DNA of 64,000 nucleotides from a bacterium (GTDB lineage: Bacteria; Zhuqueibacterota; Zhuqueibacteria; Residuimicrobiales; Krinioviventaceae), in assembly GCA_963674595.2 (NCBI GenBank), contig CAXXFV010000006.1, positions 192,001 to 256,000 on the forward strand, written 5' to 3'. The position numbers and the translations under genes were made by a program. Below are positions 2,376-52,029 of this stretch, piece after piece. The notes below the pieces were generated by a model. That model was not told where the DNA came from and made no database searches. It was given only the letters and a program-made list of their open reading frames with translations. Numbering within the stretch: position 1 is the stretch's first letter; every line of letters starts with the position of its first letter.

Positions 2376-2408
2376 TTATTTTTCAATTAAAAAATACAGA
2401 GGAAGGCT

Positions 2409-4626: not shown

Positions 4627-4647
4627 TGTGAGGAAAGATACAATACG

Positions 4648-5363
4648 ATGCGAATGGTCGATAAATACCGGTTATACTGTTGGATATGTGCAATACCTTT
4701 ATGACGAATTTTGATCGTTTTGGTGCTGAGCAGGATTTTTCGAAAACATATCGAAAGATGGGTGGAAAATTATTTGATGATGATACGATAAATAAGCTTA
4801 TTTCAAGATTATATCATGATGTTGTTGATGTTTATGACCATCAAAAAGGTATAGAAAAATTGGCTCCGCTTGATTATTTCATAAGACAGCGGCAGCAAGA
4901 GTTTGAAATTCCTGAACTGGAAATACCATTGGTCCATCAGGTTTTTGCCGAGCATGAGTGCGGGACCGTGCCACAGGAACATGTGCAGGTGATCCAGTCA
5001 TTGAGTAAAACAAACAAACTGGGAATTGTTTCCAACATTTGGGCGGATAGCGGCCGGTTTCGAAATGAGTTGATTAAGTGCGATATTGAGCAATGTTTTG
5101 ATGTGCTTGTTTTTTCTTCTGATATTGAATTTATCAAACCTTCAAAACAAATATTTGACATAACACTGCAACAGATAACCGAGTCTCCCGACCAAATTTT
5201 GTTTGTCGGTGACAGCCTGTCCCGTGATGTTGCCGGGGCACAGGCTGTTGGTTTAAGAACAGCCTGGCTAAGTTATGGCAAAGATTTTTCCGGTAATGGT
5301 TATGTAAAACCGGATTATACTATACGGGCTTTTACTGATTTGCCGAATCATGTTCCGTCATAA
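4648..5363 (+). CDS. HAD-superfamily hydrolase; -1 frameshift near 4663-4671
   Basis: Motif I region VILLDMCNT begins upstream of the ORF-track start. Also IVSN, KP and FVGDSLSRDVAGA motifs. ATG at 4648 after GAGG joins this frame if one base is added. Confidence 0.82.
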
Positions 5364-7585
5364 TAATGACGTCTTTTTTACGATGATTTGGTGTTACAAT
5401 CAAGTTTTCAACCTGACCATTAATAAATGAACCCTGTATTATGGTTTGTTCCGGGGCATGCAGTTTAAATTCCACGTTCCAGTCTTTGGGCCATGCCGGA
5501 AATAATAATATCTTGCCATCATCTGTCTGCAAAATCATCCTCTGCAATGCAATCATACTAACCGAACCGTGATCCTGGTCCGGTGTCCAGTCATAATTCG
5601 GACCCCAAAAAGCAGGAAACCTGTACCTGTCATCCTTTGTTGTAAAATTTTTTACAACCATAGATTCTGCTTCTGATACCAAGCCCAGTAGGGCCGCTTG
5701 TATCGGCGTCTGGTACCATCCACCGGTGCCTCTATGAATTCGATGCTCAAATGTTTTGCGTGCATAATCTAAATCAGGTTTTTCTGCTCCATATAAACGA
5801 TAGGGGAAAATTGTATATAATTCCGGATTTTCCTGATTATGTTTTGGTCCGGGTATTTCAGCAAATCCTATAACGGTTTCACCATTTACGATCCGCTGCG
5901 GTATCTCCGGCAACTGTTTTTCAAGCTTTTGACACAGTTTTTTAAAATTTTTATCAATCGTTTTGAGTTTGTACAATTTTGGTAAAATAAACCCGAGTCC
6001 GGCTATTTCCGGAGTCGGATTAACGGAATCCCAATAGGTTTCCAATGACTGTCCCGGCCAGATTTTTAACTTGCCGTTTTCATCGCGTTGATAATGCTGG
6101 TCATAAAAAGTGATAATTTCGTTGGCAACCGGTAACAGATATGTTTTTAAAAACTCTTTATTGGCTGTCATATCATAATAATCGAGCATAAGCGTGACAA
6201 GCTCAATACCATCCTGCCAGTAGTAGCGAATGTATTGATTAAGCGTCGTTCCAAGCGGCAAATTTTCTCTTTCCCAGCCGTAATTGGAATCCGTATAGGT
6301 CCCCCCAAAAGTACATGGTTTCCGGGTAGATGGCCCCGTCATGCTGGTAATAAGTTTTAACCCTGTTTTTTGCAAGAGGAAGCGTATTCAGAAACATATC
6401 AAAAAGCGGTTTCATCAGTGAAAAATCACCGCTGTATAACATGGACCAATAGGGGAGACGTGTGTTTTGCCACCAGTAGGGACCGCCCCAGCGACGGAAA
6501 TCGGCATCATAATGCACACCGTTAAAATAAGTGTCGACTGTAAAAATCGTACCGTTGAATTTAATCGGAGAGTTTCCGCGTCCGGCACAGGCATTAATAA
6601 ACCGCTGCAGCAAATAGCCCTGGGTGATTGTTTTAGATTCTTTAAATCCGTCCAAAAATATCCAGCTTTTGTCCCAGAAATTTTTCCAATATGAATAATG
6701 TTGTTCCTTTGTATCCGTTTCATTTAACTGTTTGGCATTATTTACAGCCGTTTCCAGTTTATTATTCCATTCGGTCAGCGTTTCGGTTTGTGATGTCAGG
6801 GCAACTATTTTTAAACAATGTTTTTTACCCAAAGTGGACAAAAGGGTGGAGGCATCTTGTTTTAGAAAATTTTCTCCAAACATGCGGCAGCCGAATGTTC
6901 TGTTCATTAACGGATCAGTGCCTTTGTTCACCCAGTTGTCCAGTCCCTGTAATTCAAGGTTTGCCTGCCAGATCGATCTGGAATTGCGATGACACCAGCC
7001 CAGTTCGTCTTTTTGCAGGTCTAAAAGAGTATCCGGTTCAACAAAAATGGCGTTGGGTCCATTATTTAAACCATAGGCCGAATGTGCTTCATCACCCTTG
7101 ATCTCACGGGGAAAAGTTCTCCATAATTCCACACTGGCTTTAACCTGAACATCTTTGGCCGCATCGGATTCAACATATATAACAGGATGATTGGCATCAA
7201 CCCGAATGGTTATACGGGCGGCGTTTTCCTTTTCACCGAGTTGTATGGTCATTTCACCTTTTGAAACATCGAGCGTTTGCGAAAATTTTGGATCAGAATA
7301 AAAAGGATTGGGCATAATCTGTATACGGACCCGGCCCAGTTTTAACAAACGTGCATTTTCGCTCCAGGCATCGGTTTTTGAAATATAGAATAAAATGTCA
7401 TCATTTTCAGCGACCCAAACATTCAAGCCGATGTCGCCGTTTCCCAGCGGCATCGAATTTAAAGCCGTATTACCAGGAGTGTCCCACGTTACTTGATATT
7501 CTTGTAAAGCTTTGGTTGCATCAAATGCATAAAGTGTTACATGAGGTAAAATAACAATAAATAGGATATAAATGAATTTTCGCAT
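5332..7585 (-). CDS. DUF5703 / GH95-like glycoside hydrolase (secreted); +1 frameshift in the C6 run at 6301-6306
   Basis: SMPLGNGDIG, ISKTDAW, RRWGGPYWWQNTRLPYW, ENPELY, LLFPAWPKDWNVEFKLHAP. The two track ORFs join as YPETMYFWGTYTDSNYGW. Start MRKFIYILF follows GAGGAG. Confidence 0.8.
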
Positions 7586-7607
7586 TTTTTTGCTCCTCAT
7601 AATAGTT

Positions 7608-8705
7608 TTATGGATCTGCATGTCCGGTTTTGTAGAGGTGATCTTTAATTTGACAGGCTCTATCATAATTCCCGGACTGGATTATTATTCTGGAAAATCC
7701 GGTTTTAATCATTTCCTGATGTTTTTTATCAACAGGGACCGTCCACTGGACGATGGGAATTTTACTTTCCCTGCATTTTTCATACATATCATCCAACTGG
7801 TAAAATTCTCCCTGATAGGGATTAATGCCTTTTAAATTCTCCAGTGTTAATAACTCGGGATACCATTGGTGGGCCTTGCCGCAAAAGTGTATCCAACCCT
7901 GCCAATTGTTCAGCAGCATTTCATCAAAAGGTTTGATGAGAGTTTTATATTGTTCTCCACTTAGATTAACGGTAGAGTCGTTTCGTATACATAATCCGCC
8001 CAGATAATTCCATGCGCCATCATGTTCGGAAATATCTTTGCCGTCTATTGTGCGGTGCTTTTTGACAATATCAATAATCGTATTACATATAATCGTCATC
8101 AAATCTTTCAACTTTTCCGGCTCATCAAGTACGGCCAGATAGATGCTGGACCCCCAGATAATACTTGCGTTATCAAAAGGTCCCTGAATGTCCAGGCATT
8201 GTGAACCGACAACCTGATTGAGTTTTTCATAGGGAGCCAATGTTTCTCTGTACCAGGCAACCGTTTCCAACGATTTTTGCACCAGTCCGGATGAAATATC
8301 TACCGTACCTTTTTTTAAAATGGAGTCGATTTCTGACTGTGATATTTCCTTGGAAATGGGCAGCTCTGTTTCAAAAACATGGACCGGGCATCTGAACGCC
8401 GATGCTATAATACCGGTACCATAATTGGCACGAATACCATAAAGTCTGTCGTCCTGAAGTTTGGCCCCCATATAAACCTGCTTTAATTCATTTAATAATA
8501 ATTTTTCGCGGTTATAAAAGATTTCATTAAAGTTAAAGCACGGCCATTCATCTTCCGGTATGTTATAATTTATTACTGTTGGAATGTGATCGATTTCCTT
8601 GAACTGAAAAGCATTCTGTTGCAATGAACGTGTTTTTTCAACATGTTCCAGGTCGATCATCTTTTCGAGTTTTTCGAGATAGGGATGTACATTTATAGCT
8701 GTCAT
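7608..8705 (-). CDS. UroD/MtaA-CmuA (URO-D_CIMS-like) superfamily protein, paralog 1 (HxCG type)
   Basis: DIQGPFDNA..IWG, DEPEKL..LM, NDSTVNLSGEQY..LIKPFD, WIHFCG. Coupled to GH2 by a TAATG overlap. Confidence 0.78.
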   Translation of the reverse strand: MTAINVHPYLEKLEKMIDLEHVEKTRSLQQNAFQFKEIDHIPTVINYNIPEDEWPCFNFNEIFYNREKLLLNELKQVYMGAKLQDDRLYGIRANYGTGIIASAFRCPVHVFETELPISKEISQSEIDSILKKGTVDISSGLVQKSLETVAWYRETLAPYEKLNQVVGSQCLDIQGPFDNASIIWGSSIYLAVLDEPEKLKDLMTIICNTIIDIVKKHRTIDGKDISEHDGAWNYLGGLCIRNDSTVNLSGEQYKTLIKPFDEMLLNNWQGWIHFCGKAHQWYPELLTLENLKGINPYQGEFYQLDDMYEKCRESKIPIVQWTVPVDKKHQEMIKTGFSRIIIQSGNYDRACQIKDHLYKTGHADP

Positions 8706-11700
8706 TATCGTTCCATTAATAAACGTTTTGCAAAGATGGAAGCAATTGGATTATCATTCGTTCTGCCGGACAATTCGACCTGGCATATTCGCCACATTCC
8801 TTTTTCATCTGTTTTTTCGGCCGCAGCAAAGACCGGTTTCCATCCGGCGGTCCAGTCTCCGTTACCGCTTTTTAAAATTGCTTGCCAGTTTTTCGTATCA
8901 AACGTTGTATGTAATATGGGAGAAGGGCAATCTGTTTTAGGATCATACCAGAACCAAAAGTCATCCGGATCAAAATCTGCTACCAAATGGTGCCCCGTAT
9001 CTCTTGATACAAAATGGCGGTCACCCATGCCGCACACAGAAACCGTAATTTCAGAATCGGCAATTTTATATTCACCGGGGTCGAGTTCCAGAAAGACGGC
9101 TAGTGCCCCGCGACGAACAGCTTTTTCTATTTCTTCTTTTTGTTTATGAAACGTTTGAAAATTATCTATTAATATGATCAAACTTTCTTTGGGTAATTGC
9201 ACCTTGTTCCTGGACAAACCAAGATCATCAAGCAAACGCCAGGCTTTGTCCTTTGATGAAGAACTTGTTATATAAATCGGCAGATTGGATGTGGTCGTGT
9301 CCTGCGGGAGAATATCAACTGTGATATCACCGGTATTGAAACATTTTTCAGAGGAGACCAGACGGGTTGTTATGTACAGTTTTTCACGATCTGAGCAGGC
9401 CGGTGCTTTAAATTTTATATATCCGCAAAACTGACTGCTGTTCACAGGAATTTTTACCTTTTCATTACCGCTGTAAATAACGCTGCCGTTTTTATTTGAT
9501 ATGGAATAGGATAAAAGAACATCTTTTAAAGATTCATTCGTATCGTTGCAGACCCACGTTTCAATTTGGATTTCATCATTTTCAAAATATATCCATTTAT
9601 CGGTGCGCAAACTTGTCATAACCGGTGATAAGGCATTTCGGTAGGTAAAGTAAGCCGGTTTGGGCTGTCGCTCCACATCCATGATTGTTTTCATCCAACC
9701 GGATGGAAAGGCATCGATGAACAAATGAATGGCAAATGAAACCATTCTGCTGTCCCGGCGAAAAGCTTCGGTTACAAGGCGTGTAATACGCACCTGGTGT
9801 TTTTGAGAGGCATGAATCCAGTTTTGTAATGAATACTGGGAATCATACCACATGTAATGAAACCGGCCCGATTGAGCGTTGACAATGCTGTTTGGGGACC
9901 AGTTTTTTTCTTCTGATTCGGATTGCGGAAGCCACTCTTTTGGATAGTATTTGCGCATAACACTTTCGGACTCTAATCCCTCAGAACCGAATTCTCCACA
10001 GGCATAATACCACCCCTTTTTAACAGGCTGCCAGTAACCTTTGTGCAGTTTTCCCAGGTCAAGACCATGACCGTTGTACCAGCCGTTGTAACAATGATTG
10101 TCCGGCAAGCCCGGTCCGGGCGGATCGTAATCCCCGTCAACAGCCTTGATGACACGGTCCGGATTGTTTAGTTTAACAACCAAATCGGCTGCCTCAAAAA
10201 AGTTTTCCAGTTCCTTGCGTAAAAGGTGCCGGTGCGGCTTGTCCATAGCATTGGGAAAGGGCTCATTTATATACGACATTAATACATTACAGGGATGATT
10301 TCGGACCAGTTTTTCCATTTCTTCGGTTTGACGAACAGCTTCGCAAAACTGGTTTTTCCTTAACACGCCGAATAACGGCAAATCCGTTTGCACCATTAAA
10401 CCCAAACGATCACAATATTCGTAAATTTCCGGTTGAACCGGACGTTGTGTCAACCGCAGAAAATTCATATTACAAATTTTTGCCAAGAGAATATCATCGA
10501 TTAATTGAGACCAGTCTTTTTTAATAACACACTGCTGTAAATGACCCATCGTGTTGGCGCCACGTAGCCGAACGGCTTGTTTATTCAGATAAAACATACC
10601 TTTTGGTTCAGACTCTGTATCCTGAGTAAAAGAGCGGATGCCGAACTGCTTTGCAAATGTATCTATTTTCTGTTGATGGTTGTCCAGCAAACTGATATGC
10701 ATCTGATATAGCCAGGGTTCCGTGAGACTCCAGATTTTCGGATTATCGACGGCAACTGTGAATTTATAAGTATTTACTCCCGGTCCAGCCGGCAGGGGTA
10801 TGTTTTTGTCGTCTCTTTTGGCCACATCTCCCAGTCCCGGCACATGGATGCTGGACGGAACAATGTGATTGTCCTGACAAATACATGTTTTAAAATTTTG
10901 TCCGTAAATAGACAGATTGAATTCTATTTCGCGCGGCTGTATATCGCAGTGAAAGATATCGAGCCAGATTTCAATCTGCTTAGCGTCCATCATCGGGCGT
11001 ACAAAAATATCTTTAATAAAAATTCGCGGCCGGGTTTCCAGAAAAACATCCTGATAGATGCCCATTCCCGGAGGACAGTGGTGCCAGCCAACCTGCGGAT
11101 CATCATAACCGCATCCTGTTGCTGCGTATATTTTATCGCCTTCAAACCGTTCTTCGCTTTCCTGGGTACGGCTTCCCATGCAGATGAAATCATTTTCAAC
11201 TTTTATGAGCAGCGAGTTGGCGCCTTTATTAACATAATCGGTAATTTCAAATTCAAAAGGGGCAAAAAATCCTTCATGGGACCCGATAAAGGAACCGTTT
11301 ATAAAGATATGCGCCTTGTAATCCACACCTTTAAAACAGATGAAAAGAGACTGATCTTTTACCGGTTTTTCCTGAACTTGAAACTCTGTTTTATACCACG
11401 TGGCTGCTTTGCCAAGGGGCGGGCCATAATGAGGAATAGTCACTTTTTCCCAGTTACCTTTTCCTTGCAGGATATTGAGAAAATTGTTTTTATCGGTATC
11501 TGTTTCTATTTTCCAGTCAAATTCCTCAAGATTTTTACGGCTTCGCAAGGACTTGTATTCGGGGGCTAGATTTTGTAAAAACGGCTCATATTGTTTTCGA
11601 AATTTTTCCAGTTCCTGTTGTAATTCCTCTGCCGAATCCATTTGTTTCGGGATTTCCTGTTGGACGCATTTATCTCCAGTGGTTAAAGGTAATATTTTAT

Positions 11701-11806: not shown

Positions 11807-11809
11807 GAT

Positions 11810-13992: not shown

Positions 13993-13995
13993 AAT

Positions 13996-15541: not shown

Positions 15542-15560
15542 ATAAATCCTTTCCTGGGTA

Positions 15561-16610: not shown

Positions 16611-16613
16611 AGA

Positions 16614-17712: not shown

Positions 17713-17719
17713 GCTTTTT

Positions 17720-18864: not shown

Positions 18865-18873
18865 TTTGCCTCG

Positions 18874-21800
18874 TTATTCGCCCGTAACCGGAAGCTGTGT
18901 GCGGTAATTATCAATGTATAATCCTATTTCATCAAAGGGAATTTTTTGAAAATCAGGAACTTTTTCATAAACAACAGAATCGTCTTTCAATTTGAAATCC
19001 ATATTTTCTGCATCGATAAAACCGGGATCCTCTTTGGTGACATAGTTGTTTTTAAATTTAAATTGTGTGTTTAATCCTACCAGCCGATATGTTTCATCAT
19101 ATTTTACAGAAACATTATTTTCAAAAGTATTTCTGGCCGGCAGCATGCCATAGTAAATATCACTGCCGGGTATAAGGTCCAGCCAGTTTACCAGATTCGG
19201 ATATGCTGACCGATAGGGCTCTTTTTTTATATCAATATGTTTTGTTAATCTGTTTCGATAAATACCGTCGTCGCCAAAATAATATTCTTTTGAATCCAGG
19301 GCAAAGTCCCACCACATGGATTTTTGCTGAAGTACCGGACCATAGCCTTCGATAAAGATATTATTCCGAACGGTTATATCCTGTCCGCCATTACTGTAGA
19401 CGGTGCCGAAAGAACCGGCTTTGTAAAATACGTTTCCTTCTACAAGACCATCACAGGCCGCATCATCAAAATAGACGCACATTGTCCATTTGCGATCAAC
19501 ACGCCCGACATGATGGAAAAAATTATAACGGATGACGTTACCCCTGTCACTTGGATTTCTGCCGATATACCATGCAGAGGCATCGTTTGAATTGAGCGTA
19601 ACATGGTGAATGTGGTTGTATTCAAAAAGGTGCTCATTACCGGCCACCATAATTGCCTGCAGCGCCGCATTAAACACTTCACAATGAGAAACACGATTAC
19701 CACATCCATATACTTTGATTCCGGGCCACTGGGACCTGTTTCTTAACTGAAAGTCATAAACTCTGCAATTTTCTACAAAACAGTTTCCGGGAACCAGCTC
19801 TTTTTTGCTGCCGCCGTCCAATAAAATACCGCCGCTGCCGGTATTATAAACATCACAACTGAGAATACCGTGATTCTTGCCGGGATGCCGGTCCCAAGTC
19901 GTATTCATATAAGAGTAAGACGTTAAGCTGCCTATTTCTCTGGAAACAGGAACACCGGTATAATCGACACCGGTAATGTGCGGAAAAGTTTGCATTGCCC
20001 CTTTTCCCATCATAATACCGATTGTGCCGCAATTTCGAATCGTGCAACCGGCAATCAGGTTATTCTGTCCGCCTTCAATATAGATACCCATTCCCCTGGT
20101 CACCTGGAAAAATACATTTTCAAAATTGACATACGAGGCGTTATCAAGGACAAGCATGGGTGTTTCCAGTTCCGAAACTTCAATCTCTGCATTTTCAAAG
20201 TTTTCAGGCGGCCATATATAAAGCATGCCCGTATTTTTGTCAACATACCATTCACCCGGACTGTCAATTTCAGCCAGAATGTTTAACGCCACATATTGTT
20301 GATAGGGAGCTCCGCTTCCCAAACCATACATGTGCGGTGTGGTCAGTTTTACCTGTCCAGCCTCTGGATTAATCCATTCAACTTTAATTTTATCATCCGC
20401 ATATCCCCATTTAAAAGTGCCCTGGAACCATATATCATCGATTCCGACCCACTTTTCATGGCGTTTGTCCGTGTATTCAAAAATACCGCCGCGTATATTT
20501 TCATAATCTCCCCAACGGGGAATGGAACCGGTATCAATAATTTTACCAATTAATATGGCGCTGTTATTCGGATACCGGGCGAGGGGCATTTTTTCGTTGT
20601 TTATAAATACTTCCAATGGCGCTGTAACAACCGGTAAACCATGACCGAATTTTTTATGCTCTCCGAAATTCGAAATTCCGAAACTTTTCAAATTGACCTG
20701 GTAAAGGTTATTTTGAGCCTCAGTAGAAATTATTTGTTTTAACACATTATTGTCAGATACTTTTTCAAAAGCATTTGTCGGTATTTTTTGTCCGCCGGAA
20801 ATATAGACTTTTTCACCTGGCCAGGCACTGTATATGATGGGAGAGTCTTTCGTGCCGGAATCTTTCTCCAGTAATTCAAAGGATTGTTTTAAAGGATAAT
20901 AACCTCCGCGCAACCATACCGTTAAACTGTCTCGGTGTTGTGCCGGTATAGTTCGAATGGCGTCCCTGGCTTTTTCCAGAGATTTAAACGGTTCTGAAAA
21001 AGTGCCGGGATTATTATCATTACCTTCGGGTGAAATGAAAAATTCACTGGCATAATGTATATCATCTTCCGGCAAGGTGGTACGAAATTCATCTCTATAG
21101 AGTCCCATTTCTTCAAATGGTATTTTTTGAAATTCAGGGATCTTTTTGTAAACAATCGAATTGTCTCTAAGCTGAAAATCCATGGTTTCATAATTGACAA
21201 AACCGGGGTCCTGATTGGTTATATAATTGTTTTTAAAATCAAATTGTGCATGTTCACCTACCAGGCGAAACGTTTCGCCGTATTTATAAATAACATTGTT
21301 TTCAAAAAGATTGTTTTTAGGCCGCATTCCTACATAGGTGACCCCGTCATCCATTAAATCCAGCCAGTTAACGAGTTCCGGATAGGTTGTGCTGTAAGGA
21401 GGTTTTGTTATATCCAGCGATTCCATCAGCCTGGTGCGATAAACACTATTTTCACCGAAATAATAATCAATTTGATACTGTCCAAAATCATACCACATGG
21501 ATTTTAATGTTAGTGCAGGCCCATAGCCTTCAATAAGAATATTATTTCTAACCGTTATATCATGACCGGCATTGCTGTAAATCGTTCCAAAGGATCCGAC
21601 TTTATAAAGAATGTTTCCTTCAACAAGTCCGCCTCCGGCCGCATCATCAAAATAGATACCCATGGTCCATTCCCGGTCCGGGTTCCCGCAATGATGAAAA
21701 AAGTTGTTACGAATAACTAAACCACGATCACTGGGGTCCCGTCCGTTATACCAGGGTGAGGTGTCATTTGAATTTAGTGTCAAATGATGGAGATGATTGT

Positions 21801-23286
21801 ATTCAAAAACATGTTCATTACCATGAACGTATATTCCCTGAAAGTCACTGTTGAAAATTTCATTATGCCGGATTTTGTTACCGCATCCGTCAACAATAAT
21901 ACCGGCCCATAAAAATTTATTACGACGGTTGTAATCATGGACCCGGCAGTTTTCCACAAGGCAATTTCCATTTATCAGATTTTTTTTATCTCCGCCGCTG
22001 AGGTAAATCCCGCCGCAACCGGTATTATAAACATCACAACTGATGATCCAATGATTATTGCCGCCGTCCCTGTCCCATGTTGTGTATTTGTATAATTGAG
22101 GTATTAAAGTACCGATTGTTCGTGAAACAGGTACACCGTCATAATCATCATGGGTAATATGTGGAAAGGTTTGTTTGGCTCCCTTTCCCATTAAAATACC
22201 AATCGTCCCCATATTACGGATCGTACATCCGGCAATGGTATTATAACCGCCACCTTCGATATAGATTCCCATATCGCGGGCATTCTCAAAAATCAGTCCC
22301 TGTATATTTACAAAAGAGACATGATCAAGGACAAACATAGGTTCATCAACAATGGAAATAGAAATTTTAGAATTTGAAATGTCTTCCGGCGGCCAGAAAT
22401 ACAACATTCCGGTATTTTTATCAACATACCATTCGCCGGGTGAATCCAGTTCTTCAAGAATGTTAAGAGCATAATAATGACGATAATTTTTGCCTGTGTC
22501 AATCCCATACATGTGCGGTGTGGCTAGCTTGACAAGGTGTTTATCCGGATCAATCCAATCAACTTTAATTTTGTCATCTGCATAACCCCATTTAAATGTT
22601 CCCTGAAACCACACATCATCCAATCCCTGCCATTTTTCATGACGGTCATCTGTGTATTCAAAAATGCCGCCGCGAATATTTTCATAATCTTTAATTCTTG
22701 GAATAGAACCGGTATCATGCACTTTACCGATCAGCATATAACCATCGTTGGGATAACGGGCAAGTGTCATCACCTCGTTGTTAAAATAAAGCTCCATAGG
22801 CGCTGTAACAACCGGCAGTGCGTGCCCGTATTGCTGGTGTTTGCCGAAATTTGTTACTCCCAGCTTTTTGAGATTTATCTCCAATATATGAGGCCGGGCA
22901 TTTTCTTCCAGCCTTTTTAATATTTTTTTGTCTGTTACCTGAGAAAATAAGGACGGGTTCAGGTCCATACCGCCGCTGATAATTACCTTTTCGTCCGGAT
23001 AATTTCGATAAACAACAGGAAAGCTGTCAACTCCGGAGTCCTGTTCGAGTAATTCAAATGATTTGGATAAATTATAGGTTCCTTCACGCAGCCAAACATT
23101 AACATCGGTTTCAGATGAGAAAGGTTTTTCGGCACGAATCGCATCTCGTGCTTTTTCAAGGGTGGCAAATGGTTCTTCAAACGTTCCCGGGTTATCGTCT
23201 GAACCATTGGGAGAGATGTAATAATCAAGTGAATAGGAGGTGGACGTCAAAAAAAAACAAACAAGAAATAGATATATTTTTTTCAT
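18874..23286 (-). CDS. Secreted right-handed parallel beta-helix protein (GH141-like/pectate-lyase fold) made of two tandem homologous modules
   Basis: Signal peptide MKKIYLFL after GAGG. Each half carries ISP.G.D.NPGT..EPF..LEKARDAIR, LARYPN, E(L/I)DSPGEWY, G..IR.NFFHH and (I/V)YFDD. Confidence 0.85.
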   Translation of the reverse strand: MKKIYLFLVCFFLTSTSYSLDYYISPNGSDDNPGTFEEPFATLEKARDAIRAEKPFSSETDVNVWLREGTYNLSKSFELLEQDSGVDSFPVVYRNYPDEKVIISGGMDLNPSLFSQVTDKKILKRLEENARPHILEINLKKLGVTNFGKHQQYGHALPVVTAPMELYFNNEVMTLARYPNDGYMLIGKVHDTGSIPRIKDYENIRGGIFEYTDDRHEKWQGLDDVWFQGTFKWGYADDKIKVDWIDPDKHLVKLATPHMYGIDTGKNYRHYYALNILEELDSPGEWYVDKNTGMLYFWPPEDISNSKISISIVDEPMFVLDHVSFVNIQGLIFENARDMGIYIEGGGYNTIAGCTIRNMGTIGILMGKGAKQTFPHITHDDYDGVPVSRTIGTLIPQLYKYTTWDRDGGNNHWIISCDVYNTGCGGIYLSGGDKKNLINGNCLVENCRVHDYNRRNKFLWAGIIVDGCGNKIRHNEIFNSDFQGIYVHGNEHVFEYNHLHHLTLNSNDTSPWYNGRDPSDRGLVIRNNFFHHCGNPDREWTMGIYFDDAAGGGLVEGNILYKVGSFGTIYSNAGHDITVRNNILIEGYGPALTLKSMWYDFGQYQIDYYFGENSVYRTRLMESLDITKPPYSTTYPELVNWLDLMDDGVTYVGMRPKNNLFENNVIYKYGETFRLVGEHAQFDFKNNYITNQDPGFVNYETMDFQLRDNSIVYKKIPEFQKIPFEEMGLYRDEFRTTLPEDDIHYASEFFISPEGNDNNPGTFSEPFKSLEKARDAIRTIPAQHRDSLTVWLRGGYYPLKQSFELLEKDSGTKDSPIIYSAWPGEKVYISGGQKIPTNAFEKVSDNNVLKQIISTEAQNNLYQVNLKSFGISNFGEHKKFGHGLPVVTAPLEVFINNEKMPLARYPNNSAILIGKIIDTGSIPRWGDYENIRGGIFEYTDKRHEKWVGIDDIWFQGTFKWGYADDKIKVEWINPEAGQVKLTTPHMYGLGSGAPYQQYVALNILAEIDSPGEWYVDKNTGMLYIWPPENFENAEIEVSELETPMLVLDNASYVNFENVFFQVTRGMGIYIEGGQNNLIAGCTIRNCGTIGIMMGKGAMQTFPHITGVDYTGVPVSREIGSLTSYSYMNTTWDRHPGKNHGILSCDVYNTGSGGILLDGGSKKELVPGNCFVENCRVYDFQLRNRSQWPGIKVYGCGNRVSHCEVFNAALQAIMVAGNEHLFEYNHIHHVTLNSNDASAWYIGRNPSDRGNVIRYNFFHHVGRVDRKWTMCVYFDDAACDGLVEGNVFYKAGSFGTVYSNGGQDITVRNNIFIEGYGPVLQQKSMWWDFALDSKEYYFGDDGIYRNRLTKHIDIKKEPYRSAYPNLVNWLDLIPGSDIYYGMLPARNTFENNVSVKYDETYRLVGLNTQFKFKNNYVTKEDPGFIDAENMDFKLKDDSVVYEKVPDFQKIPFDEIGLYIDNYRTQLPVTGE

Positions 23287-23305
23287 GATATTCCTCAAGT
23301 TAGAT

Positions 23306-24334
23306 TCAAATCAGGGGTGTATAATGTCCAAAGTTTCTGAATGCCCGGCACATAACTCTTAGTTTATCCTGGTCTAAACTAATTGCCTCGGGTGTTGTAT
23401 AGGCCATACTGACCAATCCTCCGTTAAACCCGCCGAGTGTTTTAACCATTTTTTGAACATAATTTTCTATATCCTTAGCAGAACCGTGGACCATTATATT
23501 TTGTATATCAACCGGGCACCAAAAGGCAAGTTTGCCTCCTGCTTTGTCAGCCAGATTTTCGAGTCCCATATTTTGCTGCTGGTCCATTTGCACAACGTTT
23601 AATCCTGCATTAATCAAATCAGGCAACAAGTCTATAATATAGCCACAGGAATGCATCCATACATCCATACCAAGAGAATGGGCAAGTGTCCAGTTTTCCC
23701 TATAGTGAGGAATGAAAAACTCGTTAATGAGTTCTCTGGAAATCATTAACCGGTTTTGCAAACCCCAGTCGTCATAAGCCATAACACCATCGCAACCCAG
23801 TCCGGCGAGCAGTTTTATGGATTGCCGCTGCTGTTCGGCAAACCGGGCAATCAATTCTTTTAAAAAATTCGGATGTTCATAATAACTCATGAACATATTT
23901 TCCAGTCCGATGATGTTATGAATGCCCTCATTCAAAGAACTGAATCCCATGACTCCCAAAACATATTTTGGATTATCGCTGTTTTGGTTTTCCTGTATGG
24001 CTTGTTTTGTATGAATATAATAAGACGGATTATTCCGGTCCGGAAATTTATATAAATGGTGCTGCGTTAAATCGCTGATAGGATAAGACTTTGCCTGGCC
24101 CATGTCTGTTTCGTTTCCTGCCCGGCGTTCCCATGTAACTCCCCAGGCATCTATGCGCTGGTCGATTTGACCTTTGTTTTTCCACGATTGAATATCTGCC
24201 GGACCAAGGTTTTTCCCGGTTGTCCAGGGAGCTGCCCAAAGTACATCGTTTGGTTGACCATCGGGTAAATAATGGGGGACATGGTCGGGATTTTCAAAGT
24301 GGATAGCGCGTTTAACTCGCTCTCGTGATGTCAT
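23306..24334 (-). CDS. UroD/MtaA-CmuA superfamily protein, paralog 5 (HSCG type)
   Basis: MTSRERV.RAI.F..PD.VP, DAWGVTW, IIGLEN, YDDWGLQNRLMIS, WMHSCG, F.CPVDIQ. Confidence 0.85.
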   Translation of the reverse strand: MTSRERVKRAIHFENPDHVPHYLPDGQPNDVLWAAPWTTGKNLGPADIQSWKNKGQIDQRIDAWGVTWERRAGNETDMGQAKSYPISDLTQHHLYKFPDRNNPSYYIHTKQAIQENQNSDNPKYVLGVMGFSSLNEGIHNIIGLENMFMSYYEHPNFLKELIARFAEQQRQSIKLLAGLGCDGVMAYDDWGLQNRLMISRELINEFFIPHYRENWTLAHSLGMDVWMHSCGYIIDLLPDLINAGLNVVQMDQQQNMGLENLADKAGGKLAFWCPVDIQNIMVHGSAKDIENYVQKMVKTLGGFNGGLVSMAYTTPEAISLDQDKLRVMCRAFRNFGHYTPLI

Positions 24335-24460
24335 GTCGTTTGTATTGGTAATATTTAGATTTCTATTGATTTTAGGTGTATATCAGATAATCATTTTTCA
24401 GGATATTTCCAAGTGTTTTCTATAGAAGTTTGTTGATGGATAATATTATGAAAAGAATTT

Positions 24461-25744
24461 TTAAAATAACGGAAAATGATCCTTGTTCGCTTTTTTTAAT
24501 GCCGCCCACACTTTTTCAAGTTGTGATTCTTTTGGTCCCAAAGGATGGGTGAGCATAGCTTTTTTAATCAGGGATTCATCCCTGTTCATATATCCTTCAA
24601 TCGTCAGCCGTTCAAAGTTTTTAATTGTATGAATCAAACCGAGGGTTGCCTTGTTTGCTCCGCCGATTGATTTTGTAACAGGCCCGCTTTTCGTAAGAAA
24701 GGCCGGAATTTCCAGTACATAATCCGAAGGGATATTGTCAACCGTGTCTTTATTCAACGTATTTATAATATGAATTTTGTTAGCATCTGTTTCAATGTCA
24801 TGAATCAATTCTGTTGCAACGGTTGAATACATAAATCCGCCGCGCTGACTGAGCTGCTCCGGTTTTTCCGTCAGGGTTTCCTGTTTGTACAACTCTAACA
24901 ATTCGTCTTCAATTTTTAATATGACCTGTCCCCGTGTTCCTTTAGAGTCGCGGTCTATGTATTCACTTTCCAGCATTTTGTCGGTCATGTAAAAATAACG
25001 CAAATAGGGATTGGGCAAAAGTCGCAGTTTTTTCAAAAAATCAGGTTCATAATCGGTAGCCGGAATATTTTTCATGTTGAGATTAAAACGCTGCCACATT
25101 TCATCGGTACGGTCTTTTTCGTTAATAAACACCTGTTCGGCCCAGCTTAAATGGTTCAAGCCGTAATATTTTAAAAACACATCATCTCTGGTCACGTCAA
25201 ATGATTTGGCCGATTCAAGAACAAACTCTATAGGCACATTACACAGTCCGATACATTTTTCATAATGGAGATAGTTTAACATGAATTCGGAAAGCATGCC
25301 GGACGGGTTGGAAAAACTGATGATCCAGGGATTGTTGCCATATTTTCGTGCCAGCTCAACATATTTTTCAACAATGGGAAATGCACGAAGACCGCAGGCC
25401 ATTCCTCCCATACCGGTTGTTTCCTGTCCGATTAATCCGAATTCCAGGGGAATTGTTTCATCGTTTATGCGTCCCGGCATAAGCCCGGCCCGGAACTGGA
25501 ACAGCAGATAATCCGCACCCTTGATGGCCTGTTCAGGATCATAACCTGTTTTTAAAACAATAGATGACTTGCTTGAAGTCAACATTCGTTGTGCAAACGC
25601 AGAGACGATTGCAAATTTTTCACGACTCTCCTCAATATCCAGCATATATATTTCATCGATGCGGACTATATTTGAGATATGCACCAGTCCTTCGATTAGT
25701 TCCGGTGTATAGGTGCTGCCGCCGCCAATGATACAAATTTTCAT
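24461..25744 (-). CDS. GH4 6-phospho-beta-glucosidase (NAD+/metal dependent)
   Basis: MKICIIGGGSTYTPEL, DETIPL.FGLIGQETTGMGG, NPSG, IGLCNVP, YGLNHL, PNPYLRYFY, RGG..YS. Confidence 0.92.
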   Translation of the reverse strand: MKICIIGGGSTYTPELIEGLVHISNIVRIDEIYMLDIEESREKFAIVSAFAQRMLTSSKSSIVLKTGYDPEQAIKGADYLLFQFRAGLMPGRINDETIPLEFGLIGQETTGMGGMACGLRAFPIVEKYVELARKYGNNPWIISFSNPSGMLSEFMLNYLHYEKCIGLCNVPIEFVLESAKSFDVTRDDVFLKYYGLNHLSWAEQVFINEKDRTDEMWQRFNLNMKNIPATDYEPDFLKKLRLLPNPYLRYFYMTDKMLESEYIDRDSKGTRGQVILKIEDELLELYKQETLTEKPEQLSQRGGFMYSTVATELIHDIETDANKIHIINTLNKDTVDNIPSDYVLEIPAFLTKSGPVTKSIGGANKATLGLIHTIKNFERLTIEGYMNRDESLIKKAMLTHPLGPKESQLEKVWAALKKANKDHFPLF

Positions 25745-26724
25745 GACAACTGCTCCGCTGTTTGGTAGGATTGTATAATTTTTTCGGCAAAGGAATCACT
25801 TATGTTGACGCCGCTGCCTTTTAAAGCTAAAAAGACCGCACCAAGGACTGCGTCGTGATCGGGGATAACAATATCAAGATCATATTTTTGATGCAGGGCC
25901 AATTCTATCATCTTGGTAAATGGCTGGTAACGCTCTTTAAAAACCGAACCTTCCAAAACAAGGGTAAATTTTTGATCACGAAACATGGCGTTGTAAAATT
26001 CATTTACAATTTTTAAAACCTCTTTAACCATGTTCCAGCAAATTTCCAGGGCCTTGCCGTCATATTCGAGCGCACAGGAAAATAATATCGGTAATATTTT
26101 GCGGACCTGATTATCGTCGATTTCCATGTTGACAAGCTCGCTCAAACTTTTAACGGAATAAGCTTTACTTATTCTGCTCGTCAGGATGGTCGGTTCGTCG
26201 CGACCGTCTTCCGAACGCATGGCGGCAATGAGGGTATACGAGGCAATAGCATGGCCGCCCAATACGTCTCCTAAAAATTCGCATAATCCTCCAATTCGCA
26301 TGTGTTTACCGGACGGACTCTGAACACAATTTGTATTCGCCGTACCGCATGTTACCACCATACCTGGATTGCCAAAAGTTCCGTTATGAAGGGCTATCCA
26401 GCCGTCATTTTCAAAATCAAAAGGGCGGTCCGGCAGTACCTGGGCAAAACTTTTATTAAGAATTATAAAGTCTTCCGGCGAGTCGGCTCCGGCAGCGCCG
26501 AAATAAATAAAAGAAATTTGTTCTGCAGAAATGTTAAACTTTTTTAACAGTTTTTGGACGGCGGTCTGTAACTGATGACGCATTTCCGCTTCACCGATGT
26601 TTTGATAATTGGTCCCCTTGTCTTTAAGTTTCGCCAGGACCTGACCTGAATGCTCTACAAGCGCATAGGAAGTTTTGGTGTTTCCGATATCAACGCCGAT
26701 GACGTATTGTTTTTCTTTATTCAT
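25741..26724 (-). CDS. BadF/BadG/BcrA/BcrD (ASKHA) family sugar kinase, N-acetylglucosamine-kinase-like
   Basis: IGVDIGNTKT, GAAGAD, ENDG..AL, VVTCGTA, LGD..GG, LEGSVF, AVLGA. ATGA overlap with GH4. Confidence 0.85.
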   Translation of the reverse strand: MNKEKQYVIGVDIGNTKTSYALVEHSGQVLAKLKDKGTNYQNIGEAEMRHQLQTAVQKLLKKFNISAEQISFIYFGAAGADSPEDFIILNKSFAQVLPDRPFDFENDGWIALHNGTFGNPGMVVTCGTANTNCVQSPSGKHMRIGGLCEFLGDVLGGHAIASYTLIAAMRSEDGRDEPTILTSRISKAYSVKSLSELVNMEIDDNQVRKILPILFSCALEYDGKALEICWNMVKEVLKIVNEFYNAMFRDQKFTLVLEGSVFKERYQPFTKMIELALHQKYDLDIVIPDHDAVLGAVFLALKGSGVNISDSFAEKIIQSYQTAEQLS

Positions 26725-26932
26725 TATTTTTCTCCATGTATATTGTAGTTAATTTACAAAATTATCAAAATATATCAAAACCGAAACAACAGGAGATTGT
26801 TTGTTTATCCGAATTATAAGATTAATTATGTTTTTATCCATAAAATTCTGATTATGTATTTACTTTTTTCTGTAAAATTAATATGTTTAATTGAATCAAT
26901 GGTTAATGAATTCCTAAAACAGAGGTGTCATC

Positions 26933-28200: not shown

Positions 28201-28270
28201 TTTATATATAAAAAAGCCCTGATAAAAATTTTCAGGACTTTTAATTTTTAATATAGCGTATTGTAAAAAA

Positions 28271-51953: not shown

Positions 51954-52029
51954 ACATTTCTCCTGTAGCTGCTGGTAATATTTTTTTACCTGTTTAACAG
52001 GATGAGTATAGTTTATTAGTCGTAAAGAA

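Follow-up and report, generated by a model that had tools for sequence, protein, structure and literature searches.

Gene Content and Organization of the Locus

The locus lies at positions 5332–26724 on the minus strand of the window, i.e., of the whole 64,000-nucleotide stretch of DNA that was analyzed. The host is an uncultured sediment-type bacterium. All 12 genes described in the initial annotation are present, run in one direction and are flanked on either side by a switch of strand. Their tight spacing holds once single-base indels are corrected, with overlaps or gaps of at most about 20 bp and one exception, the 126 bp between the GH4 gene and UroD-A.

The operon starts with g1 (25741–26724), a 327-aa sugar-kinase-like protein of the BadF/BadG/BcrA/BcrD ASKHA type (PF01869, 4.4e-35), whose match to NCBIfam NagK_SO3507 (7.2e-9) is far under the model cut-off and at whose N-terminus no signal peptide was found. 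The intergenic region upstream (26725–26932), where the strand switches to a divergent GFO/IDH/MocA gene (26933–28045), is likely the operon promoter region. A 4-bp overlap joins g1 to g2 (24461–25744), a predicted cytoplasmic 427-aa glycosidase of the NAD-dependent family GH4 (PF02056, 7.3e-35; PF11975, 3.4e-44). Then follow UroD-A (23306–24334; 342 aa; PF01208, 3.4e-10), the 1474-aa tandem beta-helix protein g4 with two GH141-like modules (18874–23298; Beta_helix, 1.2e-32; GH141_M, 3.4e-10), and three further UroD-like genes: UroD-B (17720–18864; PF01208, 1.8e-11 on a 265-aa piece), UroD-C (16614–17712) and UroD-D (15561–16610; 349 aa; PF01208, 6.5e-6). The GH57-like protein g8 (13996–15541), probably cytoplasmic, matches PF03065 partially (5.7e-21) and gave weak matches only in the PDB search. 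It is succeeded by g9 (11810–13992), a long sodium:solute symporter (SSS) of about 720 aa (PF00474, 1.3e-24), and by g10 (8705–11806), a 1033-aa protein with GH2 and Mannosidase_ig domains and without a signal peptide, whose closest solved chains are GH2 proteins, among them the beta-mannosidase 5n6u. UroD-E (7608–8705; 365 aa; no Pfam match) and g12 (5332–7600; DUF5703_N, 1e-77), whose start is likely the Met preceding the signal peptide, complete the operon. This gene content supports the proposed setting of glycan import and degradation.

Integrity of the Reading Frames

As written in the window, UroD-B (18562–18864 and 17720–18517), UroD-C (17197–17712 and 16614–17129) and g12 (6239–7666 and 5332–6375) are each split between two frames. 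Contigs from four runs of four other public studies, aligned to positions 5300–19000, show single-base differences at 6301, 17206, 18619, 15360 and 13858/13861, each in at least three of these runs. The window carries an extra G at 6301 in g12 (absent in three runs) and an extra base of a T7 run at 17206 in UroD-C (absent in four), and it misses a base in UroD-B, where 18619 is followed by an additional G in three runs. The N-termini of two more genes are shifted: that of g8 by an extra base at 15360 (absent in four runs), the upstream frame 15323–15541 being the beginning of the protein and the corrected start about 15541, and that of g9 near 13858–13861, with a one-base insertion at 13861 in three runs and at 13858 in the fourth (corrected start about 13992). 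UroB and UroC are each in one frame in the orthologous loci L003 and L006, and the intact UroD-B orthologues of L003, L006 and L021 are 68–70% identical. Since the contigs of the other studies lack the indels and the L003 and L006 orthologues are intact, the breaks are errors of this assembly; judged by these alignments, UroD-B, UroD-C and g12 are intact in nature and, with each of the five indels absent from most or all of the other runs, the genes are presumably functional.

The Five UroD-Like Proteins

By their profile matches and predicted folds, the five UroD-like genes are all members of the UroD/MtaA/MetE superfamily and none is HemE, as had been proposed. The assignment is based on PF01208 for UroD-A, UroD-B and UroD-D, on a family HMM built without the genes of the window for UroD-E (5.7e-9) and UroD-C (2.4e-4, for its C-terminal piece), and on barrel models for UroD-A and UroD-E. 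UroD-D also matches the family HMM (1.1e-10), and UroD-C resembles this paralogue with 43% identity over 138 aa of the C-terminal half and 30% over the N-terminal part. About 45 superfamily genes occur in this genome, the top PF01208 match being a 540-aa fusion with a thioredoxin domain (205–207 bits). Public annotation labels such proteins "uroporphyrinogen decarboxylase family protein." No signal peptide was found on any of the five, in agreement with the initial annotation.

UroD-A has 638 homologues at E ≤ 1e-5, and the 119 others listed are 55–72% identical and come from several phyla; for UroD-E, a further 118 homologues at E ≤ 1e-5, nearly all 46–63% identical, are likewise spread across phyla. 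The predicted structure of UroD-A (pLDDT 89.4) has HemE and MtaA as its top fold matches (TM about 0.65), with MtaA 4ay7 second (3.2e-11), and that of UroD-E (pLDDT 95.4) matches MtaA 4ay7 best (1.1e-8); the two proteins align in register (hhalign, E 0.015). Both carry an invariant motif, His228-Ser-Cys230-Gly in UroD-A and His273-Phe-Cys275-Gly in UroD-E, and this His-x-Cys-Gly, which we take to be the zinc motif of MtaA and MetE that is absent from HemE, is kept in most of the roughly 45 paralogues. The Cys is missing from the motif in UroD-B, where Asp-x-Asp replaces His-x-Cys, and in UroD-C and UroD-D, which have His-Leu-Asp; HxC, HxD, DxD and HxH variants all occur among the paralogues. 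The homologue alignment shows that Cys273 of UroD-A, the distal zinc Cys, is not invariant, and many of the residues that are invariant in this protein are Trp, Tyr, Asp, Asn or Gln.

The barrels resemble HemE in fold and in public name, but they bear a metal motif, stand outside any haem context and match PF01208 partially at 26–44 bits; in relatives within the phylum, 29 HemE-like matches of full or nearly full length reach 376–481 bits. UroD-A and UroD-E share fold and His-x-Cys-Gly with the methylcobamide:coenzyme M methyltransferases MtaA/MtbA (TIGR01463; 4ay7), and the best NCBIfam matches of the barrels are MtaA-type models; however, these score 13–27 bits against cut-offs of 235–600, the distal zinc Cys is unconserved in UroD-A, the window shows no coenzyme M context, and the genes stand in a setting of sugar catabolism.

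An Exported GH139 Protein and a Beta-Helix Protein

The last gene had been called DUF5703/GH95-like. The DUF5703_N part of that call stands, and the family is corrected to GH139: full-length matches link both halves of g12 to the solved GH139 chains 9hmb (3.7e-77 and 3.2e-59) and 9hyq, so that by homology g12 is a GH139 protein and not merely a GH95-like one. Both entries stem from a paper on this family (PMC12282258). No other family is known to release 2-O-methyl-L-fucose. Counterparts of the Gln-Asn, Glu, Trp and Asp of the published −1 subsite are found in g12 (PMC12282258), and the position of Asn729, by inferred numbering, is Asp. The gene is the only DUF5703_N/GH139 gene of the genome and directly follows UroD-E. 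The two halves of g4 are 62% identical, its relatives are single modules of about 740 aa, and its PDB matches include 9rx2 (2.8e-20) and the GH141 protein BT_1002 (5mqp, 5.2e-13). Signal peptides on g12 and g4 indicate that both are exported, contrary to their earlier placement in the cytoplasm; the other operon products look cytoplasmic.

The GH139 2-O-methyl-alpha-L-fucosidases (BT0984; 9hyq, 9hmb) and the rhamnogalacturonan-II system of Bacteroides thetaiotaomicron offer the closest glycan-side comparison, with a full-length match to g12 and with GH141-like and GH2 proteins that are also present in the operon. GH2 enzymes occur in the rhamnogalacturonan-II system, for which we know of no UroD-like partner; in the operon, by contrast, five MtaA-fold genes accompany GH139. 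The GH139 paper counts GH141 as a fucosidase family (PMC12282258).

Conservation of the Gene Neighborhood

The expected linkage to carbohydrate-active enzyme and SSS genes extends beyond the window. A GH141-like beta-helix, GH139 or UroD-E gene is found in 12 of the 23 UroD-A ortholog loci, which span several phyla (GH139 in 4, the GH141-like beta-helix in 6), and 2 of their 74 neighbor genes encode GH29 fucosidases. The order UroA, beta-helix, UroB, UroC, SSS, GH2 is kept in L003, and most of it in L021 and in L006, which is truncated inside the SSS gene. UroA adjoins UroD-E in L008, L010 and L017, and 12 contigs are apparently common to the match lists of the two proteins. In this genome, 8 of 43 SSS genes have a UroD-like gene at a distance of 3 kb or less, compared with 5.6% under random placement, as do four of the six long genes of the g9 type; further neighbors of UroD-like genes include GFO/IDH/MocA genes, xylose-isomerase-like barrels, aldose epimerase and sugar transporters. 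Among 25 GH139 metagenome loci, a UroD-like gene occurs in just two, probably one organism twice.

Three A–E pairs have neighbors of another kind. In L010, a fusion of DUF1638 with a hydantoinase/MutL-like ATPase directly follows UroA-UroE; in L017, DUF1638 is encoded 4.7 kb upstream of the pair; and in L008, the second gene upstream belongs to the MttB family. DUF1638 and a RamA-like protein are required together for B12-dependent methionine synthesis in P. inhibens (bioRxiv 10.1101/192971).

Corrinoid Proteins in the Genome

The genome has a single free corrinoid protein; its gene lies 12 kb upstream of the window, and its DxHxxG motif is intact. Among solved structures the protein is closest to 1y80, MttC, MtmC and 4jgi (2.9e-47), the last of which we take to be the Desulfitobacterium O-demethylase corrinoid protein. 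No UroD-fold chain is among its 18 solved relatives; 2i2x and 7xcn are presumably complexes of such relatives with other barrel families. Two proteins with RACo_C_ter domains (RACo activators) and one DUF1638 protein are also encoded. MetH bears its own activation domain, so MetH alone leaves the two activators unexplained.

UroD-A, the one barrel docked, was modeled in complex with the corrinoid protein from alignments of 34 and 20 rows, respectively. The three runs scored 0.78, 0.78 and 0.79, against 0.01 for the best of three controls (58 of 80 solved complexes attain the mark set for this score, as do 2 of 110 mismatched pairs). The score measures model confidence and may stem from a docking surface inherited from the ancestor of the superfamily, not from present use. 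At least 90% of contacts are common to the runs, with partner pLDDT of at least 84. The modeled interface comprises residues 144–152, 192–202, 231, 252 and 278 of UroD-A, around the His228/Cys230 face, and residues 103–106 and 178–179 of the corrinoid protein, in or adjoining the conserved DxHxxG and GGAP stretches that presumably line the cobalamin site.

Of 41 genomes of the order, eight encode a UroD-A orthologue, all of them alongside RACo, and the 11 that lack RACo also lack UroD-A; RACo is absent from relatives with 11–12 PF01208 copies, e.g., G052, a closed genome with 11 matches. The operon contains no gene for a corrinoid protein, for RACo or for a pterin methyltransferase. A tblastn search recovered no corrinoid protein in the 23 UroD-A ortholog loci, and one beside a distant homologue of 29% identity (L066). 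B12-binding was outside the 25 most frequent families both of the 74 ortholog-locus neighbors and of 156 neighbors of UroD-like genes in this genome. The corrinoid gene has a context of its own (GHMP kinase, HAD, DegT) that recurs at 16 of the 20 loci from the order, and at none of the 20 does the corrinoid gene adjoin a UroD-like gene.

A Possible Route for Sugar O-Demethylation

Taken as a whole, the observation behind the initial annotation is confirmed and its interpretation partly supported. We tentatively favor the reading that the five barrels take part in corrinoid-dependent O-demethylation of sugars, for which anaerobic methyl stripping is plausible; this idea gains indirect support from the GH139 identity of g12, the UroD-A docking model and the corrinoid-reactivation genes near A–E in two loci, and it loses from the corrinoid gene being unlinked wherever searched, from the rarity of UroD-like genes at GH139 loci and from the missing Cys of UroD-B, UroD-C and UroD-D. 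Gene content, fold, motif, linkage and the assignment to GH139 are shown; that the substrate is a sugar, that a corrinoid is needed and which way the methyl group travels are inferred. The operon would serve the use of a methyl-etherified, fucose-containing glycan under anoxic conditions. The exported GH139, of a family that releases 2-O-methyl-L-fucose, and the duplicated GH141-like beta-helix would cleave the polymer outside the cytoplasm, the long SSS transporter would bring the products in, the cytoplasmic GH2, GH4 and GH57-like enzymes would complete the breakdown, and the ASKHA kinase would phosphorylate a sugar. The five UroD/MtaA-fold proteins would be substrate-specific methyltransferases of the corrinoid-dependent type. 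In MtaB, zinc polarizes methanol; in UroD-A, the metal held by His-x-Cys would similarly polarize the methyl-ether oxygen of the sugar, with cob(I)alamin on the single free corrinoid protein as methyl acceptor. UroD-E, the conserved partner, would accept a second substrate or relay the methyl group, the corrinoid would be kept reduced by the two RACo activators, and the methyl group could leave via canonical MtaA-like paralogues or parts of methionine synthase.

The single carrier would, however, need to serve about 45 enzymes, which speaks against this model. The same imbalance suits a less likely alternative, in which the barrels are corrinoid-independent, metal-dependent enzymes acting on imported sugars, a new carbohydrate-active class on an inherited MtaA/MetE scaffold that might catalyze isomerization, dehydration, uronic acid decarboxylation or a thiol-dependent reaction. 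The docking model, the DUF1638 and MttB genes beside three A–E pairs and the two RACo genes left over by MetH all argue against such enzymes, and we know of no superfamily member that performs isomerization, dehydration or a similar step on a sugar; the unlinked corrinoid gene in the operon and the orthologous loci, the motif variation, the likeness of the invariant UroD-A residues to sugar-binding pockets, the lack of RACo in relatives with many copies and the sugar-type neighbors are in their favor.

It is improbable that the barrels are corrinoid-dependent methyltransferases for non-sugar compounds arriving together with glycans, such as methanol derived from pectin esters, methylated amines or thiols, or methoxylated aromatics freed along with plant or algal glycans. 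The docking model and the MttB-family neighbor in L008 would suit them equally, and the characterized substrates of the superfamily are all non-sugars in one published account (PMC10418091). Against this stand the translational packing of the UroD genes among glycosidases and a sugar transporter (gaps of 1–19 bp), the UroA-to-GH2 arrangement preserved wholly or mostly in three loci, the proximity of UroD-A to GH139, GH141-like or GH29 genes in several phyla, and the five distinct paralogues, which fit several sugars better than one small C1 compound. That the genes are decaying pseudogenes or irrelevant HemE copies, as two split genes out of five and the public name might suggest, is refuted as far as the sequence evidence reaches by the assembly errors behind the splits, the intact orthologues, the conservation across phyla, the low PF01208 scores and the best NCBIfam matches being to MtaA-type models, far under their cut-offs.

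Sugar O-demethylation by the operon barrels would find its nearest analogue, compared by description, in methyltransferase I of bacterial and archaeal O-demethylases, the aryl methyl ether:corrinoid protein methyltransferases such as MtoB and those of Desulfitobacterium and Acetobacterium. Superfamily and barrel fold are common to both, and the proposed reaction is alike: cob(I)alamin, borne by a small corrinoid protein that a RACo-type activator keeps reduced, accepts the methyl group of a methyl ether. Known O-demethylase systems encode carrier and methyltransferases together, whereas the operon barrels adjoin no gene for a corrinoid protein, methyltransferase II or activator and are embedded among glycosidases and a transporter; the former cleave phenyl ethers, and the substrate here would be an aliphatic sugar ether. 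To our knowledge, no corrinoid methyltransferase cleaves an aliphatic sugar methyl ether and no UroD/MtaA-superfamily enzyme acts on a sugar ether, and full-text literature searches found no published O-demethylation of the former kind. The P450 6-O-methyl-D-galactose demethylase of marine Bacteroidota has a similar task in removing a methyl ether that blocks catabolism (PMC6292453), but it requires oxygen and yields formaldehyde, unlike the oxygen-free methyl transfer proposed for the operon. If true, the latter would represent an undescribed oxygen-free route for the removal of methyl groups from sugars.

Operon structure and assembly errors

Twelve consecutive genes on the minus strand fill positions 5332-26724. 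According to crude ORF calls named with Pfam, gene 1 encodes a BadF/BcrAD-type ASKHA kinase-like protein and gene 2 a GH4 enzyme, followed by gene 3 (UroD-A, URO-D), gene 4 (a 1474-aa beta-helix protein with two GH141_M insertions), gene 5 (UroD-B, URO-D), gene 6 (UroD-C, an ORF pair without a Pfam name), gene 7 (UroD-D, URO-D), gene 8 (a GH57-like protein), gene 9 (a sodium:solute symporter, SSS), gene 10 (GH2), gene 11 (UroD-E, 365 aa, likewise unnamed by Pfam) and gene 12 (DUF5703_N, then a weak GH95-catalytic match). As written in the window, UroD-B, UroD-C and gene 12 are each broken across two frames, at GGGTTT, a T7 run and the sole G6 run of the window. Positions 5300-19000 were compared with contigs from four public sequencing runs, each of a different study; one run equals the window apart from indels, and the other three differ by at least 73 substitutions in long pieces. 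In three or all four of the runs, one base fewer than in the window is found at 6301, 17206 and 15360, and one base more behind 18619 and near 13858-13861. The differences at 6301, 17206 and 18619 mend the three broken genes, while those at 15360 and 13858-13861 move the upstream ends of the GH57-like and SSS genes out to 15541 and 13992 and close apparent gaps. The whole 13.7 kb is covered by one unbroken contig from another study. Because the contigs of other studies mend the breaks and the UroB and UroC genes are single-frame in orthologous loci, these comparisons indicate that the operon is intact in nature and that the frame breaks are errors of this assembly. Pseudogenization of the three genes was considered and rejected, the contigs of other studies being free of the breaks. 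With the bases corrected, the tight spacing described in the initial annotation holds, with overlaps or gaps of at most about 20 bp plus one gap of 126 bp. A scan of 4500-24400 for promoter-like (79 versus 53 in shuffles) and terminator-like sites (25 versus 20) was patternless and thus of no help in defining the transcription unit.

The five single-base indels within 13.7 kb relative to the contigs of other studies lie in several cases at homopolymer runs, and the assembly probably has many more such errors. An overlapping ORF pair for a thioesterase (27919-28341 and 28271-28693) may be another.

Predicted glycan-cleaving partners

The product of gene 12, previously taken for a DUF5703/GH95-like protein, is instead a GH139 enzyme, matching solved GH139 chains over its full length (9hmb, 3.7e-77 and 3.2e-59; 9hyq, 3e-53 and 1.3e-54, for the N- and C-terminal halves, respectively). 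Both structures come from a 2025 JBC study of GH139 2-O-methyl-fucosidases (PMC12282258). In the alignment the protein has the motifs WWQNTR, LETY, GGW and DWTPD, which in our own mapping of residue numbers would correspond to Gln411/Asn412, Glu561, Trp683 and Asp723 of the BT0984 -1 subsite; at the position mapped to Asn729 the protein has Asp. Gene 12 is the sole DUF5703_N gene of the genome, and a full-text literature search returned no paper mentioning 'DUF5703'. The beta-helix protein of gene 4 consists of two modules, 62% identical to each other, of which relatives have a single one. GH141_M is found in both halves (3.4e-10), and the relation to the GH141 fucosidase BT_1002 (5mqp, 5.2e-13) is weak, with only about 90 residues aligned. 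Signal peptides are predicted on the beta-helix protein and on GH139, and none on GH2, GH4, the GH57-like protein, the kinase or any of the five UroD-like proteins, whose description as signal-less was correct. The glycan would thus be cut outside the cell, its products imported by the SSS transporter, and the breakdown finished in the cytoplasm.

Elsewhere in the window, positions 40099-62966 hold GH92, GH97, a beta-lactamase-fold protein and an L-arabinose isomerase, together with three sulfatases (50586-52280, 52030-53424 and 61524-62966) and a further beta-helix protein (58477-60483). T9SS sorting tails are found on the proteins encoded at 26-1804 and 33609-35132, and along with the glycoside hydrolase and sulfatase set they suggest that the organism is a glycan degrader of the FCB group.

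Family, fold and motif of the UroD-like proteins

The assignment of all five proteins to the UroD/MtaA/MetE superfamily stands, by PF01208 matches for UroD-A, UroD-B and UroD-D (39.9, 44.1 and 25.8 bits, all partial), by the identity between UroD-C and UroD-D (43% in the C-terminal half, 30% in the N-terminal part), by a family HMM and by structure models of UroD-A and UroD-E. UroD-C and UroD-E have no PF01208 match at E <= 0.01. The family HMM, built from 41 paralogous ORFs of the rest of the genome with the window genes left out, recognizes UroD-A (2.8e-59), UroD-B (2.7e-32), UroD-D (1.1e-10), UroD-E (5.7e-9) and the C-terminal piece of UroD-C (2.4e-4). The five are highly divergent, BLASTP detecting only the A-B (2e-5) and C-D relations, and UroD-A searched against the PDB as single sequence and as profile gave no match better than E 0.24. 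The AlphaFold models of UroD-A (pLDDT 89.4) and UroD-E (pLDDT 95.4) are (beta/alpha)8 barrels, a fold shared with MtaA/CmuA; their closest solved folds are HemE and the Methanosarcina mazei MtaA-type methyltransferase 4ay7, at TM 0.6-0.69 (Foldseek versus 4ay7: UroD-A 3.2e-11, TM 0.64; UroD-E 1.1e-8, TM 0.61-0.66). The best NCBIfam matches of the UroD-like proteins are MtaA-type models, far under their cut-offs; for MtaA/CmuA (TIGR01463), the best score in the operon is 26.8 bits against a curated cut-off of 235.4.

Most paralogues retain His-x-Cys-Gly, the zinc motif of MtaA and MetE, among them UroD-A (HSCG) and UroD-E (HFCG), whose motifs are in register in a profile-profile alignment. At this position UroD-C and UroD-D have His-Leu-Asp and UroD-B has Asp-Thr-Asp. 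Neither His228 nor Cys230 varies across 34 orthologues of UroD-A, and many of its Trp, Tyr, Asp, Asn and Gln residues are equally constant; in 28 orthologues of UroD-E the same holds for His273 and Cys275. The zinc ligands of the MtaA/CmuA type are His-x-Cys plus a distal Cys; the distal Cys273 of UroD-A is variable, being Ser or Ala in some of the 34 orthologues.

Distribution and paralogues

At E <= 1e-5, UroD-A has 638 homologues, and the best 119 others among them are 55-72% identical and carry the labels KSB1/Zhuqueibacterota, Sedimentisphaerales, Victivallales, Armatimonadota, Chloroflexota and Oceanispirochaeta. The 118 further homologues of UroD-E come from the same phyla, for the most part without a name, and almost all are 46-63% identical to it. 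Contigs labelled Hadarchaeota and Thermococci archaeon (L027, L031, L032 and L058) also carry UroD-A homologues, at 36-38% identity, which suggests transfer between domains or mis-binned contigs.

In the 6.6-Mb genome of the window, PF01208 matches 41 places, and an iterated search of the ORF calls returned 47 ORFs, corresponding to about 45 UroD-like genes. First-look counts gave 31-51 candidates in several genomes of the order and one to three in many other members of the phylum. The best PF01208 match of the genome is a 540-aa fusion (contig C16, 687321-688943; L091:9189-10811) in which a high-scoring URO-D domain (205-207 bits) is followed by a thioredoxin domain at the C-terminus; in relatives, equally long ORFs adjoin small corrinoid proteins and the corrinoid activator RACo, e.g., at 1858007-1868401 on contig C5 of genome G111.

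Genomic linkage to glycan genes

The initial annotation had placed the UroD-like genes in a glycan operon, and the linkage to such genes recurs in other genomes. Orthologues of UroD-A, 52-70% identical, are carried by 23 of the 66 genome loci compared, and 12 of these 23 have at least one of the beta-helix, GH139 and UroE genes: a beta-helix gene like gene 4 in six, GH139 in four and a UroD-E orthologue directly adjacent to UroD-A in three. Orthologues of both UroB and UroC are found in three of the 23. Locus L003 keeps the full order UroA, beta-helix, UroB, UroC, SSS, GH2, and most of it is kept in L021 and in L006, which ends inside the SSS gene. Among 74 flanking genes, Pfam names Beta_helix (8), URO-D (7), DUF5703_N (4), GH29 fucosidase (2), GH42 (2), the GH95 catalytic domain (2) and AXE1 (2). 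UroD-A and UroD-E form a conserved pair, because their match lists have 12 contigs of exactly equal size in common (a proxy for co-location) and one Chloroflexi record gives them neighbouring locus tags. Within the genome of the window, 8 of 43 SSS genes lie at most 3 kb from a UroD-like gene, versus 5.6% at random placement, and the eight include four of the six long SSS genes of the window's type. Two results speak against a tight linkage. Seen from GH139, a UroD-like gene accompanies only 2 of 25 metagenome loci, on contigs many of which are short, and these two look like one organism. In the genome of the window, the 156 neighbours of the remaining UroD-like genes are highly diverse (122 and 131 Pfam families in two sets) and, in a tally without a random-gene control, only modestly rich in sugar genes.

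In four loci from Clostridia/Bacillota (L051, L055, L056 and L057), a 32-34% identical UroD-A homologue is found about 6.5 kb from a 42-44% identical GH2 homologue, a second, distant recurrence of the pairing of GH2 with a UroD-like gene.

Corrinoid machinery in trans

For known O-demethylases, the carrier, methyltransferase II and the activator are encoded together with methyltransferase I; in contrast, none of them is found in the operon or in the 23 UroD-A orthologue loci, and the genome holds its corrinoid set in trans (one corrinoid protein, two RACo_C_ter activators and one DUF1638). B12-binding_2 matches exactly two ORFs, a MetH-like one of 958 aa and a free 210-aa corrinoid protein encoded 12 kb upstream of the window (contig C6, 179078-179710; L001:7078-7710). 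The latter has an intact DxHxxG motif, and its closest solved relatives are 1y80 (2.5e-85), MttC, MtmC and 4jgi, the corrinoid protein of a Desulfitobacterium O-demethylase. Its orthologues are 67-77% identical, with GHMP kinase, HAD and/or DegT genes alongside in 16 of 20 loci of the order and an adjoining UroD-like gene in none of the 20. The cluster of the window's genome, compared across L113-L132, comprises CYTH, PRPP synthase, the corrinoid protein, GHMP kinase, HAD and DegT aminotransferase; CYTH and PRPP synthase accompany the corrinoid protein in only some of the 20 loci. The B12 carrier thus has neighbours of a sugar-nucleotide type.

When UroD-A was modelled with this corrinoid protein, the complex scored 0.78, 0.78 and 0.79, against 0.01 for the best of three controls. 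Among 80 solved complexes, 58 reach the mark set for this score, as do 2 of 110 mismatched pairs; this calibration holds only roughly, since custom alignments were supplied. At least 90% of the contacts agree between runs, and the partner pLDDT is at least 84. In the model, UroD-A makes contact through the catalytic face of its barrel (144-152, 192-202, Gly231, Gln252 and Gln278) and the corrinoid protein through the conserved DxHxxG and GGAP stretches, which presumably line the cobalamin site. Among 18 solved relatives of the corrinoid protein there is no UroD-fold chain (2i2x and 7xcn being complexes with the MtaB and MttB barrels), so the docking score is not a simple memory of this pair; the modelled docking may reflect a general or ancestral docking mode.

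MetH carries its own activation domain and hence is not obviously in need of RACo or DUF1638, which weakens the view of these proteins as helpers of MetH only. RACo is present in 30 of 41 genomes of the order, including all eight that bear a UroD-A orthologue, and none of the 11 genomes lacking RACo bears one; this co-occurrence is only suggestive, since kin are not independent. In the taxonomic family to which the window belongs, none of the other 16 genomes has a UroD-A orthologue. Outside the phylum, five genomes with UroD-A orthologues were compared, and each has a small ORF of the size of a corrinoid protein. Several A-E pairs have further corrinoid-related neighbours: in L010 a 964-aa fusion (2376-5270) that joins DUF1638 to a hydantoinase/MutL-like (ASKHA) ATPase comes directly after the pair, L017 has a DUF1638 gene 4.7 kb upstream, and L008 has an MttB-family gene two genes upstream. 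In P. inhibens, according to a preprint, DUF1638 and a RamA-like protein are needed for B12-dependent methionine synthesis (Price et al., bioRxiv 10.1101/192971). The L010 fusion, a candidate B12-reactivating machine, has 1885 homologues at E <= 1e-10; the best 120 bear labels such as Armatimonadota, Lentisphaerae and Abditibacteriota, and in most of them the two parts are fused in the same way. Its match list has one equal-size contig (107502) in common with that of UroA, which is too little to count, and its ATPase part has no homologue in the genome of the window.

A separate cluster of that genome (contig C14, about 129300-134050; L078:7830-12581) encodes a GntR/LacI-type regulator, a 318-aa stand-alone homocysteine S-methyltransferase domain, a UroD-superfamily protein (362 aa, HCCG motif) and two CbiA/NifH-like ATPases. 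Since the 958-aa MetH-like ORF (contig C18) seems to be without a homocysteine domain, this genome may have a split methionine synthase.

Possible functions and significance

The methyl ethers of sugars block ordinary glycosidases and sugar catabolism, and they occur, e.g., in pectin (2-O-methyl-fucose and 2-O-methyl-xylose), red algae (6-O-methyl-galactose) and xylan (4-O-methyl-glucuronate). Their corrinoid-dependent removal is the likeliest function of the UroD-like barrels of the operon, a reading to which we would give somewhat less than even chances. The partnership with GH139, the docking model and the DUF1638 neighbours are its strongest points, and its weakest is that a linked corrinoid protein gene is altogether missing. 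The main rival, which is less likely, is a corrinoid-independent, metal-dependent reaction on sugars (the initial annotation had likewise considered a new class of metal-dependent carbohydrate-active enzymes); relatives with 11-12 PF01208 matches yet no RACo exist, e.g., the closed genome G052, whereas the modelled contact of UroD-A with the corrinoid protein speaks against it. Methyl transfer from non-sugar substrates is improbable. To the extent that sequence allows, HemE and pseudogenes are ruled out. The five proteins reach at most 44 bits in PF01208, against 376-481 bits for 29 full- or near-full-length HemE-like matches of phylum relatives (positions 2-345, one from 45; the tally counts an unpublished genome, G088, that none of the claims depends on), and HemE has a metal-free active site and a haem-pathway context, whereas UroD-A and UroD-E carry the invariant His-x-Cys and the operon has glycan genes only.

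Known members of the superfamily are, according to a 2023 preprint, HemE, MetE, epoxide:CoM transferase and corrinoid O-, S- and halogen-demethylases (PMC10418091), and the full-text search found no paper giving the UroD/MtaA superfamily a role in carbohydrates. The sole route of sugar demethylation described in the papers found is an oxygen-requiring P450 enzyme; the question concerned is how methylated sugars are handled in anoxic sediments, digesters and guts. Sugar demethylation by these widespread, highly conserved families of the MtaA fold, if true, would give carbohydrate degradation a new class of enzymes, explain the large and so far puzzling "uroporphyrinogen decarboxylase family" expansions in anaerobic glycan degraders and tie glycan breakdown to B12 demand and C1 metabolism. 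It would also provide a testable pairing, in which GH139 frees methyl-fucose and UroD-A/E strips the methyl group. More speculatively, the approximately 45 paralogues, with their relatives in Sedimentisphaerales, Victivallales, Armatimonadota, Chloroflexota and Clostridia, may form a repertoire of sugar demethylases, each for one methylated sugar or position and all feeding one shared corrinoid protein, with UroD-A and UroD-E as the conserved two-enzyme core. Under anaerobic conditions, such a repertoire would take the place of the oxygen-dependent P450 sugar demethylases, and its role would be comparable to that of the sulfatase repertoires of marine glycan degraders.
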